From Eledone cirrhosa (taxonomy: Eukaryota), in assembly GCA_964016885.1 (NCBI GenBank), contig OZ024746.1, positions 22,506,001-22,570,000 of the forward strand: 64,000 bases of DNA, written 5' to 3'. The notes beneath the pieces are model-generated. The model worked only from the letters and a program-made list of their open reading frames with translations, did not search any database and was not told where the DNA came from. Positions 1 to 63,668 of this stretch are shown here, piece by piece (position 1 is the first letter of the stretch; every line of letters starts with the position of its first letter). A program made the translations under genes and the position numbers.

Positions 1-486
1 GACAGTGGTAGTAGTAGTAGCAGCAGTGGTGGTAGTAGTGGTGGTGATAATGACTGGTCATAGTCATTGTAATAGTAGCAGTGGTGGTACTGGTAGTGAT
101 GTATGTGGTGTTGACGGGTGGTCAGTAGTTTTAAATGGTTTTATTTAGAAAGGAATATTATATTAATTGTTGCAAGTTTGTACCTGATGTTACTGCAGTC
201 TTTAAGTGAATCTATAGACTACATCAAATTGTTATTGACTTCTATTTTAAACACACTACACATTACATTAAACTTTCCATGGTTTGGTAATATTTTTCTC
301 ATTAGTCTCGAATTAAAATAAGTTAATTAAAAAACAAAAAAGTTAACTGTTTTGTTACCATATTTCTAATAAAAGACAGCTTATAAAGATTTTCAAAATA
401 ATCATATTTGAAGGGATTTATTCAAATGACTTTCTATGTATTAAGCTGGTGTTTGGAACATAACTTAAAGGTTCTTATATAACATT

Positions 487-21029: not shown

Positions 21030-21435
21030 TTTATGCCAATAGACGTATGTGAGAAGTGCCATGATTTATGGGAGGGAGAGAGAGAGACATGGGTGATTAT
21101 TGTGTGCAGTAGAGAAGGCTGGAAAGAACAGAAATAAGTTTGGTTTTATGGATGATTGAAGAATCACTGAGAGAGGGAAAAACAAACAATGAATTGCAGA
21201 GCTTGATAGGAATAGAGCCAGTGATGGATGCTGTGAAGAGAAATGGAATGAGAGGATTGGGTCATGTGTTGAGGAAGGATGAAAGTGACTGGGTGAGAGG
21301 AATAGAGCCAGTGATGAATGTTGTGCAGAGAAATGGGTTGGGCCATGTGTTGGAAAAGGATGATAGTGATGGAAGTAGTAACAGAAGGCCAAAAAAGACT
21401 TGTCTAAAGATGATGGAGGAGGAAATGAAAGGCAG
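21030..21435 (+). mobile_element. Old RTE-type LINE 3' fragment with internal duplication
   Basis: LREGKTNNELQSLIGIEPVMDAVKRNGMRGLGHVLRKDESDWVR followed by a repeat GIEPVMNVVQRNGLGHVLEKDD, then RRPKKT. This is a typical RTE C-terminal signature. Confidence 0.75.
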
Positions 21436-22514
21436 TGGAGGTGGTGTACAAAAGTTAGGAGGAAAAACATTTGTTGTTGTTCTAGGGTAGAGTTTTGTCA
21501 ATTTGTCTGAATAATGGTTTAGTCTACCCAGTCTAGAGTTTTTGAAACTTTTCATATCAGCTACACACTTTTTAACCCTTTTCATATCAGCTACACACTT
21601 TTTAACCCTTTTGTTACTTATTTCTAGTAAAAGACAGCCTATAATTTTGAAATGAACTTGAAAATAAAGAATTTGGAGGGATTTAGAAATATAATTTTCT
21701 CATTATTATTAGGGTGTTGGATTGGCAGTATCAGTAAAGTATCTGACATGCTTTGCAGTATAGTTACAATCCTTTACATTCTGAGTTCAAATCCTGCTGA
21801 TGTTAGCTTTCCCTTTCATCCTTATGGGGGTTGAGAAAATAAAGTACCAGTAATGCACTGGAGTTGATTTAATCGACTTTCTCCTCTCCCAAAATTGTTA
21901 GTCTTCTGAGTAAAATCAGAAGCCATTTTTAAGCTAATGATTGGAATCTAATTTAACAAAGGTTCTTTTATAAAATTATGATGAAAAATTTATAAGATAA
22001 ATATAAACAACTAAAAATAAACATTCTAGTATCATATGACCAATGGGGGAGGGTGTTCAGATAATTTGGTATGAAGAGGTTTAAAAATATTTTGCTTTCG
22101 TGACCCATTCAGTTTTGTTAGATACAACTAAATAAATGAAAAAACAAACAAACAACTAAAACAATTAAATACATCACGTGTCGCCAATCACGTACACGTT
22201 TAATTTTATACTAAGTTGTAGTTATCAGGTCTCAAATATACATTCAGAGACACATTTATATATAAAAAATAATTTATTGGATTTAACTTAACTCTGTGAC
22301 CACACCCAGAGATTTTTAGTGACACAATAAAGTGTTGTGTCACAGTTTAGAAAGAATCCTCTTAAAAGAGTCCACTTTTACCATAGTCGTATAGCCTAAC
22401 GTATTTTAAGGTGGGCTGAAGGTGGCGTTAACACTTCTACTACTTGATAGTACAAAATGCACAGCTTAGTAATAATCTTTTGTATCCCAAATGTGTGTCT
22501 AGCTTAGATGTATG

Positions 22515-23384: not shown

Positions 23385-23459
23385 GTAAGTCTTAAATTTT
23401 AATGATTCTGTATGTCCCTCTGCCCCTCTCTTTCTCTCTCCCCTCTCACTCTGTATGTA

Positions 23460-23490
<31 letters not shown>

Positions 23491-23692
23491 GCTAGCATGG
23501 AAAATGGATATTAAACGATGATGATGATTTACACACAGACACAATGTAAATATTGATATATTTAAAAAAATACTGACTTTAAGACCAATAACTCCTCAAT
23601 GCAAATTAGATGCTAAAAAAAGCCCAAGCAGCAGGAACCCACATATCTATCGTTATAAATTCATACACGCACGCACACGCACGCACACACAC

Positions 23693-23763
<71 letters not shown>

Positions 23764-23801
23764 CACGGACACACACCAACGGACATGGACACACACACAC
23801 A

Positions 23802-23991
23802 CGGGTCGGCTGTAAACTTCATTTGCTGACCAAGATAGTCTCATAGAATGACTAAATCAGGTTTATTTTTCAAAATAGCCCCTGGAAAGAGACAGTGCAG
23901 TTATTAAGAGATGAAATTAATGCATGCAAAATTTCATGGCTCGAGCATCACTCCTTCATGGTCAGCCTATGAACTTTTCAGCCGACCCTCA
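23802..23991. mobile_element. Tc1/mariner-type MITE
   Basis: ~30 bp imperfect TIRs gggtcggctgtaaacttcatttgctgacca / tggtcagcctatgaacttttcagccgaccc, followed by TA. Confidence 0.7.
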
Positions 23992-23993
23992 TA

Positions 23994-24241
23994 TCATCAT
24001 CATCATCATCAACGTTTAACGTCCGTGTTCCACGCTTGCATGGGTTTGGACGGGGGTAGTCCCACTTGAGGCAAGAGTGATTGTCTTGCTCGCATAGGAC
24101 TGTCTGGCAGGTTTTCTACAGTTGGATGCCCTTCCTAACACCAACCACATTTACAGTGTGGGTCTGGGAGGTTTTTACCGTGTTGCCTACACGGCCACAT
24201 TACAGCGTGGACTGTGTGTTTTTTGTCGTGACACCTACACG

Positions 24242-24244
<3 letters not shown>
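23994..24244 (-). mobile_element. 3' UTR copy of the LINE at 42639-43452, ending at a (TA)n tract
   Basis: Nearly identical to 42645-42895 (aacgtttaacgtccgtgttccacgcttgc...gacacctacacgatc), with only a few substitutions. Confidence 0.9.
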
Positions 24245-24292
<48 letters not shown>

Positions 24293-24337
24293 AAGTTAAA
24301 TAAAAAGTCAAATGATTAAAATTTAGCTTCGTTTATT

Positions 24338-24392
24338 ACTGCTATATATATTTCAGTTACAGCCATCTTTGGCAGTGACCTCTTCAGGCAGT
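24338..24392 (-). ncRNA. Minimal type-I hammerhead ribozyme motif, inverted copy
   Basis: Reverse complement of 24563-24617 with two substitutions, both in stem II. The core is intact. Confidence 0.72.
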
Positions 24393-24562
24393 TTGAATTA
24401 GTATGGTATAGACAAGTACATATGTTGTTGAGGTGTATAATATTGTCAATACTCTGATATGCCCAGTTCCTGGTTGGGTTGTTATTTCACTGAAGAACTG
24501 GAATCATATATGATTCCAGTCTATACCATGTACTTGTACTTGTCTATACCATACTAATTCAA

Positions 24563-24617
24563 ACTGCCTGAAGAGGTCACAGCCAAAGATGGCTGTCACT
24601 GAAATATATATAGCAGT
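24563..24617 (+). ncRNA. Minimal type-I hammerhead ribozyme motif (Penelope-like), sense to UGCG intron
   Basis: actgc-CTGAAGA-g gtcacagcc aaagat ggctgtcac t-GAAA-tatata-TA-gcagt. Stem I is actgc/gcagt, stem II is ~10 bp with one mismatch, stem III is short and palindromic, and the cleavage triplet is AUA. Confidence 0.8.
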
Positions 24618-27084
24618 AATAAACGAAGCTAAATTTTAATCATTTGACTTTTTATTTAACTTTATTTTACACTACTCCGGAGTAACCAAACCACCCTGCG
24701 CACTTCGTCGAGTGCTCCAGCCTGCATACTGAGGTGTTGCTATACAACCAACATAAACTCAAAATATATACTTATATATATATATATATAATTTGTAAAA
24801 TAACATTTTATGAGGCCAGGATCCCAGACCTCATTCACTGGAACTCATCAAATCGGACCAAGGAAACAATGTTTCCATTGCTGATGCTATCTACCGGCTG
24901 CAACACCTAGCAGAAAGTGCAATGTGAAATAAAATGTCTTGCTGAAGGACATAACGCATCACCCAGTACAGGAATCGAACTTGCATTCTCACGATTGTGA
25001 ATTCATCTCTCTAACCACTAAGCTACACACCTTCATATTATGAAGCCAATGTGTACTGATTATACAAAATGGCTGTGTGCGCGTGTGTATGTGTGTCTTT
25101 TCACTTTTGAATTTGTGTGTGAGTAGGTGCATGCTGTATTTTCACACAAATATTCACTTTAAAGCAAAGCTAGAATTAATGTCTAGTAGTTATTCTTAGG
25201 AAGAAGAAAAACATATACCATACCTAATGCATGGTATTTTGTTACAAAACACAACAAACCTGATTTTTAACAGACTCTCTTATTCTTGAATCATGTAAAT
25301 ATTTGAAATAAATAGAAAAAAAATATAATCTTTGATTGAATTTGGACTTACAATTTAAAGCAAGTCATGATTTTTTTCATTGCTTTACAAGCTGGATTAA
25401 GAGATAGGCAAAAGAGGAGGTATAAGATTTACTCATTTGATACATAAAAGTCTAAAGTCTGCCTCAAGCCCGGCGGCTCATCAGGCCAATGTGTACCCCA
25501 GTTTCCGTGACGTGAAACTTTTGATAGTACAAGACTTCCCACTGGACAGGATGCCAGTCCATCGCTGGGTTAAAGTTTGTCTTGAGCCTGGAGGCTCAAG
25601 TGGTTGGTGCTTATCCTGGTTTCTGTGGCGTTAAGTGACTGAGATTACAAGACTTTCCCCTGATTAATTAAACTCCTGGCTACTTCTGGTACTCATTTTC
25701 AACTGAATATACCAGAGAAACATGAAATAAAGTGTTTTGCTCAAGAACACAATTCACAATCTAGTCTAGGAATTGAACTCATAAGTCGAACACCCTTACC
25801 GCAAGGCCACGCACCGCCACTCAACCGACACCAATCTGACTGAAATCACCTCTAGTTCTATAAAACTGCCCATTTTAAGTTTTATATTTATATTAAAATC
25901 TCCCATCATAATTTTAAGAAATTTTTGTTAAATATTTCAAACAGCAGCTTACTAATGGAAATAGTAAATTTCTCAAAAAAAAAATTTTTTTTTCAAATTT
26001 TTAAAAACATATATGCAGTGTATTTTATTAGAAATACAATAACGAAAGGTTTAAGATATGTCACAAAAATAAACATAGCCAGGGTTTTTCAATGATATTA
26101 AGAAATATCTACTTTGAATATACTGTTATTTTTGGCATGGTTTTTACAGCTTGATTCCCTTCAAATAACCAATAACTTTACAGTGTATAGGGTGCATTCT
26201 ATTGGGCTACTAACACAAGAGATTGTCCCCAACAAAACTAACAGTCCCTTCAACCTTATTTTGCCTGAGAGAGATCTATAAAATAAGTACCAAATACTGA
26301 AGTCAGTATGATTAACAACAGTTTTGAAGGCAGTGCCCCAGCATAGCCCCAGTCCAATGACTGCAACCAGTAAAAGAATACAATTTAATAAGTAGTAGGA
26401 TTTTTGTTATTTTATTTATTAATTTTTTGGTATTCTTTGTCTTTGTAATTAATCTGTCATGGGAAGAAGTACCACTAGGCTCTGTTTTATTTCCCTTTTA
26501 TGTTTGCTTTGTATATCGGCTGAAACAGTGTTTAAGGCTTTATACATAACTCATAAATCAAACATAAATCTCTATAAGTACTTTGTTTGATATATTTACA
26601 GAATATTATATAGTTTTCTATAAGTAGTTTAGTTTTAACATTCTTAGTTTACTTCATCAGTCCTACTTTGTATTTAGATTGCCATTTTAAGAATACTATA
26701 AACCCATTTCCATGAATACATCTTTATTAAAGCTCTGTTCAGTCATATCCTTGTCATCTTGGAAGACGGGGAATTGAGATTCATTAGGGCGTTGGATTAA
26801 AAATGCTTCTGTATTTGTTCCGGCTCCCTGTACTCTGAGTTCAAATTCCACTAACGCTGACTTCACCTTTCATCCTTTCAAAGTCAGTAAAGTACTGGTC
26901 TTGTATTGGAGTTGGTTCTTCTACCATCTCTCTCTTTCTTTCTCTCTCAGGAATTTGCTGTTTCTCAAGACACACCATATCTCAGGACAGCACCTCTATG
27001 ACACCATTAGAATTCAAGGGCAGCTTTTTTGTTTAGTCAAGAGCTAGGACAAAGCTTATGACCCTTTTACATAGTGCCAAAAAC

Positions 27085-27490
27085 TGAGATGATAGGAGAG
27101 AGAGAAATCCTTAAACTAGAGCTATTTGGTGCCAAAGTCCGTTGAGATGGTGGGAAGGTAAGAGAGAGAGGTATCCTCAAATTAGAGACATGTGGTACCA
27201 GTCTTTTGAGATTGGGGGAGAAAGTGAAAGGATGGGTACCTTCAAATTAAATATATGTGGTACCAAAGCCTCTTGAGAGGGAGAGAGGTAATGTCATATT
27301 AGAGATATGTGGTACCTAAGTCTATTGAGATGGTGGGAGAGAGAGAGAAGGTGGGTATCTTCAAATTAGAGATGTGGAACCTAAGTCTTTTGAGATTGTT
27401 GGAGAGAGAGAGAGAAGGTGGGTATCCTCAAATTAGAGATGTGGTACCAAAGCCTCATGAGCAGTAGAGAGGTATTGTCATATTAGAGAC
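27085..27490. repeat. Minisatellite, ~50-65 bp unit, ~7 copies
   Basis: Repeated ttgagatggtgggagagaga...ggtatcctcaaattagaga(ta)tgtggtacc(a/t)aag. Confidence 0.85.
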
Positions 27491-62872: not shown

Positions 62873-63668
62873 ATATATAATATTTGTATATAGCATATAT
62901 ATATATATATATATATGGATATATAATATTTGTATATAGCATATATATATATATATATATATATGGATATATAATATTTGTATATAGCATATATATATAT
63001 ATATATATGGATATATAATATTTGTATATAGCATATATATATATATATATATATGTGGATATATAATATTTGTATATAGCATATATATATATATATATAT
63101 GTGGATATATAATATTTGTATATAGCATATATGTATATATATATATGGATATATAATATTTGTATATAGCATATATATATATATATATATATGGATATAT
63201 AATATTTGTATATAGCATATATATATATATATGGATATATAATATTTGTATCTATATATATATATATATATATATGGATATATAATATTTGTATATAGCA
63301 TATATATATATATATGGATATATAATATTTGTATCTATATATATATATATATATATATGGATATATAATATTTGTATCTATATATATATATATATATATA
63401 TGGATATATAATATTTGTATCTATATATATATATATATATATATGAATATATAATGTTTGTATCTATATATATATATATATATATATGGATATATAATAT
63501 TTGTATCTATATATATATATATATATATATGAATATATAATGTTTGTATCTATATATATATATATATATATGGATATATAATATTTGTATCTATATATAT
63601 ATATATATATATGGATATATAATATTTGTAATATATGTTATATATATATAGTATATATATATATATAT
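62631..63668. repeat. TA-rich satellite, unit ggatatataatatttgtatatagc(at)n
   Basis: More than 20 visible tandem copies of variable length. Confidence 0.95.

Follow-up and report, generated by a model that had tools for sequence, protein, structure and literature searches.

How did a long inverted repeat with hammerhead-type ribozyme motifs on both strands come to lie in an intron of a glucosyltransferase gene of Eledone cirrhosa, and can those motifs act where they now stand? The question is raised by positions 24286-24765 of a 64,000-nucleotide stretch of contig OZ024746.1 (assembly GCA_964016885.1; positions 22,506,001 to 22,570,000, forward strand), which is referred to in its entirety as the window and to which all coordinates below belong. 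A preliminary description had proposed a Penelope-derived or retrozyme-like non-autonomous unit in which self-cleavage competes with hairpin formation in the host transcript. The locus is two truncated copies of a high-copy repeat joined head to head within (TA)n; these copies were probably laid down as short repeat ends in one event by a Penelope-like retrotransposon and are probably now inert.

Genomic Setting

Placement of the insert in an intron of a UGCG-like gene, as first described, was confirmed. The intron spans 23385-34703 on the forward strand (11.3 kb) with GT..AG boundaries, the exons on either side match residues 48-79 and 78-114 of ceramide glucosyltransferase in the PDB (E ~1e-8), later exons of the gene match Pfam Glyco_transf_21, and the insert lies about 0.9 kb past the donor site. 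Among the 99 open reading frames of at least 62 amino acids in the window (low-complexity frames excluded), glycosyltransferase matches alone exceeded the Pfam cut-off, and none of the 99 matched a reverse transcriptase (RT) or GIY-YIG family. The (TA)n tracts said to flank the element on both sides are present at 24245-24287 and 24764-24790 and make up the left and right parts of the likely target site; because (TA)n on either side hides any duplication, the target-site duplication is unreadable, and no empty site appeared among the 21 loose ends listed out of 526 in the sequencing runs introduced below.

Other repeats occupy the surroundings. A short repeat (24081-24293) sits directly left of the target (TA)n and has a near-identical copy at 42731-42943, and two short imperfect inverted pairs (83-85%) precede the insert within the intron, at 23489-23528/24002-24041 and 23803-23835/23956-23988. 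Right of the insert, a different high-copy repeat (24832-24894) is also present in organism B and, in run X4, far exceeds the hammerhead family in relative depth. Another fold-back (41377-41660), with arms of 86-89 nt that are 95.5% complementary, adjoins and contains TA runs, holds no hammerhead by motif scan and has related partial pieces within 1.1 kb (40491-40619 and 40975-41010). By eye, the frames at 31535-31939 (+), 43039-43479 (-) and 21113-21490 (+), with no Pfam match above the cut-off, resemble C-terminal remnants of LINE open reading frames, which we take to be RTE-type.

Structure of the Insert

The two arms, 24286-24420 and 24535-24669, are 135 nt long and 99% complementary, in agreement with the near-perfect inverted arms first reported; their 2 mismatches (24581/24374 and 24597/24358) both fall within stem II of the hammerhead motifs, and the predicted folding energy of the region is -258 kcal/mol (z -27), a value equalled by none of 100 shuffles. 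The right arm, recognised by its arm match and run depth, is a direct 5'-truncated copy in the sense of the host gene and is followed by a tail of about 96 nt (24670-24765, +), close to the 95 bp initially estimated, which brings the right copy to about 232 nt in all. This tail, a family sequence present in the right copy only, carries two short motifs: TACTCC..GAGT, a palindrome at 24673-24683, and GTTG-N5-CAAC, a hairpin at 24736-24748. The left unit (24286-24509, -), delimited by run depth and contigs, is an inverted 5'-truncated copy of 224 nt whose 3' end points leftward and bears no tail; it comprises the 135-nt arm and 89 nt of upstream family sequence (24421-24509) in which no ORF end is recognisable. 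A reading of the 114 nt between the arms as mere spacer was therefore rejected, as 89 of them belong to the left copy. The two units meet in a near-private junction of 25 nt (24510-24534, +) assembled from three short templated pieces, of which the first is 24497-24507 in reverse complement and the second and third duplicate 24542-24552 and 24536-24540; the end of the left unit and its 11-nt fold-back together form a perfect palindrome of 24 nt (24497-24520).

The extent of the family was judged from four public runs (X1, X4, X5 and X15, of 17 listed), of which X1 is possibly the assembly's own sample, compared with 24286-24915; run depth does not equal copy number and is used for contrast alone. 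In X1, the hammerhead had a depth of 5.8-8.4e5, positions 24412-24495 one of 3.0-4.3e5 and the tail one of 2.8-3.7e5, against 0-99 just right of the insert, where part of the flank was skipped as repeat. The junction bin 24517-24537 had a depth of 62 in X1, with neighbouring bins at 1e5-8e5, and of 0, 0 and about 5 in X4, X5 and X15; the profiles of X4 and X15 have the same shape as that of X1. This contrast identifies the repeat as a high-copy family to which most of the supposed spacer belongs.

The same figures bear on the idea that the whole fold-back is mobile in the manner of a MITE or of a fold-back DNA transposon bounded by terminal inverted repeats, an idea for which the 135-nt near-perfect inverted arms, the lack of an ORF and the TA-rich target would speak. 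A conserved whole unit with inverted repeats at both termini was, however, not found at the locus: the right arm is not terminal, as 96 nt of family tail lie beyond it, the junction is some four orders of magnitude shallower than the high-copy halves, and other copies have other junctions. A MITE-like origin is thus highly improbable, and the term non-autonomous unit, which the preliminary description had applied to the fold-back itself, finds no support.

How the copies are joined elsewhere can be followed in contigs and reads. X5 record 17, a contig of a different organism, runs along the minus strand from 24509 to 24303 and then passes without a break into plus-strand 24654-24737, a continuity which gives the sense order of the element as upstream part, arm and tail; past 24509 the family contigs extend further, by 108 and 206 bases in X1 records 7 and 8 and by 65 in X5 record 17. 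Among the 15 joints listed out of 27, at least 8 link antisense to sense sequence at other breakpoints with 0-6 shared letters (at least 5 of them share 3-6), one further joint is a fold-back at 24509 (run X15), and the other 6 divide into two deletions, three joints within the flank repeat and one at which the strand changes; support for each antisense-to-sense or fold-back joint amounts to one contig or 1-4 read starts. Copy-specific joints at such varied breakpoints point to head-to-head joining as a habit of the family, and, because other copies join at other breakpoints, the fold-back is best regarded as a one-off insertion product and not as an amplifying unit.

Alternatively, the direct copy may have arrived first and the inverted copy may have arisen later through DNA repair, by fold-back synthesis and template switches. 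Repair polymerases leave short templated pieces with microhomology, and the junction is composed of exactly such pieces. The 89 family bases of the left copy are nevertheless missing from the right, so the right copy was not the template and the left copy does not derive from it; moreover, the layout recurs in other copies and in the second family described below. Later repair is, on this evidence, very unlikely.

At least five positions of the locus copy are near-private among the 40 variants listed out of 99, two of them in the left stem II; otherwise the copy departs little from the family majority, and the insertion is accordingly likely to be young. Two patterns in run X15 were discarded as biological signals: its read-end pile-ups (24320, 24396, 24556 and 24635) fall at AATT sites, as expected of what is presumably a restriction-based library, and its excess of A>G variants is no sign of editing, given that X15 is a DNA run in which T>C is equally frequent (16 each).

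The Ribozyme Motifs

Each arm had been said to hold a hammerhead core closed by a stem I of 5 bp, with cleavage after A24612, and at the level of the motif this was upheld. The candidate type-I hammerhead of the right copy (24563-24617, +; pattern 24568-24612) comprises a 5-bp stem I (24563-24567 with 24613-24617), the core CUGAAGA (24568-24574), a stem II (24575-24600) of 3 bp, a C/C mismatch and 6 bp (9 pairs), GAAA (24601-24604) and a palindromic, alternating A/U helix III (24604-24611), with the predicted cut after A24612. Its counterpart in the left copy (24338-24392, -; pattern 24343-24387, predicted cut after 24343) has an intact core and one broken stem II pair. A further candidate at 24490-24520 was rejected as a third hammerhead, being on the antisense side of the family sequence and not followed by GAAA.

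The hammerhead pattern matches four times in the 64-kb window and in none of 100 shuffles, a lenient null given that the pattern was derived from the window motifs themselves. In isolation, the plus-strand motif adopts the hammerhead fold (z -2.6; 4 of 200 shuffles equally good), and the minus-strand motif does so less well (z -0.7; 45 of 200) because of the lost stem II pair; helix III does not fold as a monomer and is predicted to form an 8-bp intermolecular self-duplex at -3.2 kcal/mol. The covariance-model check proposed in the preliminary description went against the assignment, as Rfam returned no hammerhead for either the whole window or the local region at the gathering threshold, or at E up to 10.

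None of the 40 family variants listed out of 99 falls in the catalytic core, which may weakly hint at its conservation. In the left stem II, minority letters occupy 24358 and 24374, and a C at 24600, which restores the standard G10.1-C11.1 pair, accounts for 31-42% of family depth in three runs. Minimal hammerheads have been described in the terminal repeats of Penelope-like elements, sometimes as opposite-strand pairs 100-700 bp apart (PMC4209133). The motifs here resemble these metazoan minimal type-I forms in their 5-bp helix I, long helix II, palindromic helix III suited to dimers, and paired arrangement on opposite strands; they depart from the published consensus in that both copies have G-U for G10.1-C11.1 and lack the extra base between 9 and 10.1, and differ in the C/C mismatch of stem II in both window families and in a predicted cut after A (PMC4209133).

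A Second, Diverged Element

The motif scan also found an inverted hammerhead pair in a second, diverged element of the same layout at 62245-62630. Its inverted arms (62245-62356 and 62427-62538) enclose a middle of 70 nt and are followed by a tail of about 90 nt, with (TA)n on both sides, and its motifs lie at 62294-62342 (-) and 62441-62489 (+); insertion into (TA)n thus holds for both of the window elements. The stem II plan of 3 bp, a C/C mismatch and 6 bp is common to the two, with 4 double-sided changes and 1 single-sided change among 9 pairs, and pair 10.1-11.1 is A-U where the locus copies have G-U. The element sits within about 10 kb of degenerate TA-rich microsatellite arrays (53000-63400, GC 10-23%).

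Aligned as wholes, the two elements are no more similar than shuffles (56 of 500), which is likewise true of their tails (327 of 1000), and neither tail folds better than shuffles. The TACTCC..GAGT palindrome nevertheless opens both tails; of its four matches in the window, two represent both strands of the first tail, one the second tail and one a site elsewhere. GTTG-N5-CAAC stands about 20 nt before the end of both tails and matches nowhere else in the window, a count of two that 6 of 100 shuffles also reach; both patterns were picked after inspection of the tails.

Origin of the Insert

The layout is familiar from EN+ Penelope-like elements, which are strongly 5'-truncated, are often accompanied at the 5' end by an inverted copy, itself 5'-truncated, as well as by a tail of 30-40 bp at one end, and, in several clades, target (TA)n (PMC8557442); palindromes and microhomology joins have been described at their inverted junctions (PMC3846280). 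Like insertions of Penelope/Poseidon, Neptune, Nematis and Hydra, with Penelope-13_HM among the examples (PMC3846280; PMC8557442 and its supplement), the locus combines a head-to-head inverted copy with a junction palindrome, a tail at one end, a hammerhead 100-200 nt from the 3' end and a (TA)n target. A type-I motif near the 3' end (by motif and fold), the one-end tail, a junction with palindrome and microhomology, and variable breakpoints are all found in the family. Unlike typical EN+ insertions, the locus has two copies cut down to some 230 nt each that contain no ORF, no target-site duplication can be read, and the tails of 90-96 nt exceed the 30-40 nt published for these elements (PMC8557442). 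The Penelope derivation of the preliminary description agrees well with the minimal type-I motif, the inverted 5'-truncated copy, the one-sided tail, the junction palindrome and (TA)n; no RT or GIY-YIG ORF could be linked to the family in the window or in the metagenome scans described below.

A closer placement is less straightforward. Elements of the Hydra clade, including Hydra-1_Obim, share the (TA)n insertion, the type-I hammerhead near the 3' end and an occurrence in molluscs; helix III begins with AC in all 26 of the rows listed for that clade, in contrast to AT here, and the Hydra-1_Obim motif differs from the locus motif in all stems (PMC8557442). The (TA)n preference is itself not diagnostic of the Hydra clade, because it is shared with Naiad and a microsatellite bias has also been noted for Neptune. 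Proteins of the Hydra clade are marked by the RT/EN signatures RWK and DKT and by the absence of CCHH.

Relatives were also sought in environmental sequence. A family-specific pattern had no match in the metagenome collection, and a loose hammerhead pattern gave 116 loci from 22 of its 64 parts, of which one (L177) passed a slightly looser stem filter; in viral contigs, 95 matches yielded none that passed the stem filter. L177 has a hammerhead-like motif at 300-337 (-) with a helix III identical to that of the locus motif, and, about 300 nt upstream of it (~600-637, -), a frameshifted stretch read by eye as NTLEP-x-GLN, which resembles the TL.P.GLN endonuclease motif at the end of the GIY-YIG domain in Naiad proteins. 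As 1 passing locus in 116 is near chance by rough estimate, L177 is a lead only.

Published biochemistry suggests how the two copies could have been laid down. Purified Penelope protein cuts AT-rich DNA in both strands and extends them, and the Penelope RT uses two internal start sites on its RNA, which delimit the tail (PMC11167929). At the present locus, a GIY-YIG endonuclease would have nicked both strands of the AT-rich target, and reverse transcription would have been primed at each nick and begun at one or other of the two internal RNA sites, so that one cDNA acquired the tailed end (~24765) and the other the tail-less end (24286, which corresponds to 24669). Synthesis of both would have ended early; the left cDNA may have halted at the element hairpin, folded back over 11 nt and, after two template switches, joined the right cDNA. 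The hammerhead would be part of the terminal repeat of the parent element and would need a same-sense partner or help from protein. Double-nick priming as the source of inverted copies is our own proposal, and PMC11167929 makes no such claim; the inverted copy may instead have arisen by self-priming on an antisense template, as preferred in PMC3846280.

The same insertion mechanism could have acted on a parent other than a truncated coding element, namely a short non-coding RNA, either a lone terminal repeat or a master copy of retrozyme type, that relied on a Penelope protein acting in trans. Family depth is very high, the 89 upstream bases hold no ORF, terminal repeats are enough for mobilisation in trans (PMC3846280), and animal retrozymes have been argued to be non-autonomous Penelope derivatives (10.64898/2026.07.22.740005). 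Non-LTR retrozymes are likewise non-coding, high-copy units of a few hundred bases with type-I hammerheads (PMC7229834; 10.64898/2026.07.22.740005). Unlike retrozymes, however, in which head-to-tail arrays give rise to circular RNA (PMC7229834), the locus has motifs on opposite strands that cannot release a monomer; inverted pairs and no head-to-tail tandem units occur at the two window loci, and for this reason the label retrozyme-like was dropped for the locus. Family contigs also reach at least 65-206 bases further upstream, and 5' truncation by itself accounts for short copies. A non-coding parent is accordingly unlikely, and a Penelope-like retrotransposon remains the probable source of both copies.

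Consequences for the Host Transcript

A possible role of the insert as a recruited switch in the UGCG pre-mRNA, with self-cleavage competing against the long hairpin, was assessed by folding models. In favour of such a role, the plus-strand motif is the better preserved, has the orientation of the host transcript and adopts the hammerhead fold on its own, and unwinding through editing could in principle free it. The modelled cost of enforcing the hammerhead nevertheless rises from 0.0 kcal/mol for the motif alone and 0.7 for the right unit to 75 for the whole insert and 69 for nascent RNA, where the nascent model ends at the motif and all costs are equilibrium figures; the probability of stems I and II is 0.000 both in the whole insert and in the nascent RNA. 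The antisense arm is transcribed first, and pairing with it can begin some 30 nt ahead of the core; a monomer forms no helix III, and the opposite-strand motif cannot supply the dimer partner for helix III within one transcript. Single minimal motifs, furthermore, showed no cleavage in vitro (PMC4209133), and a Penelope hammerhead cleaved only with its protein (PMC11167929). The copy is near the family majority (at least five near-private letters among the 40 variants noted above) and likely young. Because of the +75 kcal/mol cost, the order of transcription and the unavailable helix III partner, the cleavage-hairpin competition advanced in the preliminary description is unsupported by these models, and a regulatory switch is exceedingly doubtful.

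The ribozyme motifs are predicted instead to be locked in a 135-bp duplex in the host pre-mRNA. The likelier fate of this long duplex is to serve as a substrate for A-to-I editing and to be removed with the intron, a fate that we infer by drawing on PMC5625713.

Outlook

The head-to-head layout is already known; what is new is slight and confined to the long tail with its motifs common to both elements. In the accessible literature, no description was found of tails of 90-96 nt, of the tail motifs that the two elements share or of a stem II with the C/C mismatch; Repbase, Dfam or supplementary files may contain them. Since 31 recently active Penelope-like families have been described in Octopus vulgaris (PMC13282606), the locus family is possibly present in an existing repeat library, and 235 hammerhead-1 matches were reported without analysis in the giant squid (PMC6962438).

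A bolder reading, which is unlikely, would see two diverged Penelope-lineage families with unusually long tails (90-96 nt), RT starts each marked by a conserved palindromic signal (TACTCC..GAGT just past the tail-less end and GTTG-N5-CAAC about 20 nt before the tailed end), a hammerhead subtype with a conserved C/C mismatch in stem II, and self-silencing intronic ribozymes that supply duplexes for editing. If this were true, habitual head-to-head insertion would fill introns with ribozymes silenced by pairing, and the family would be tolerated in genes.

For annotation, neither MITE nor microRNA precursor nor regulatory ribozyme is a fitting label for hairpins of this kind. With its many copies and their individual junctions, the family offers a good natural data set on inverted copies and on the choice of the two start sites in Penelope-like elements, and the motifs common to the two families are specific candidate signals. 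Lastly, in a cephalopod, such inserts could add to the abundant long duplexes that have been tied to hyper-editing in octopus (PMC5625713).
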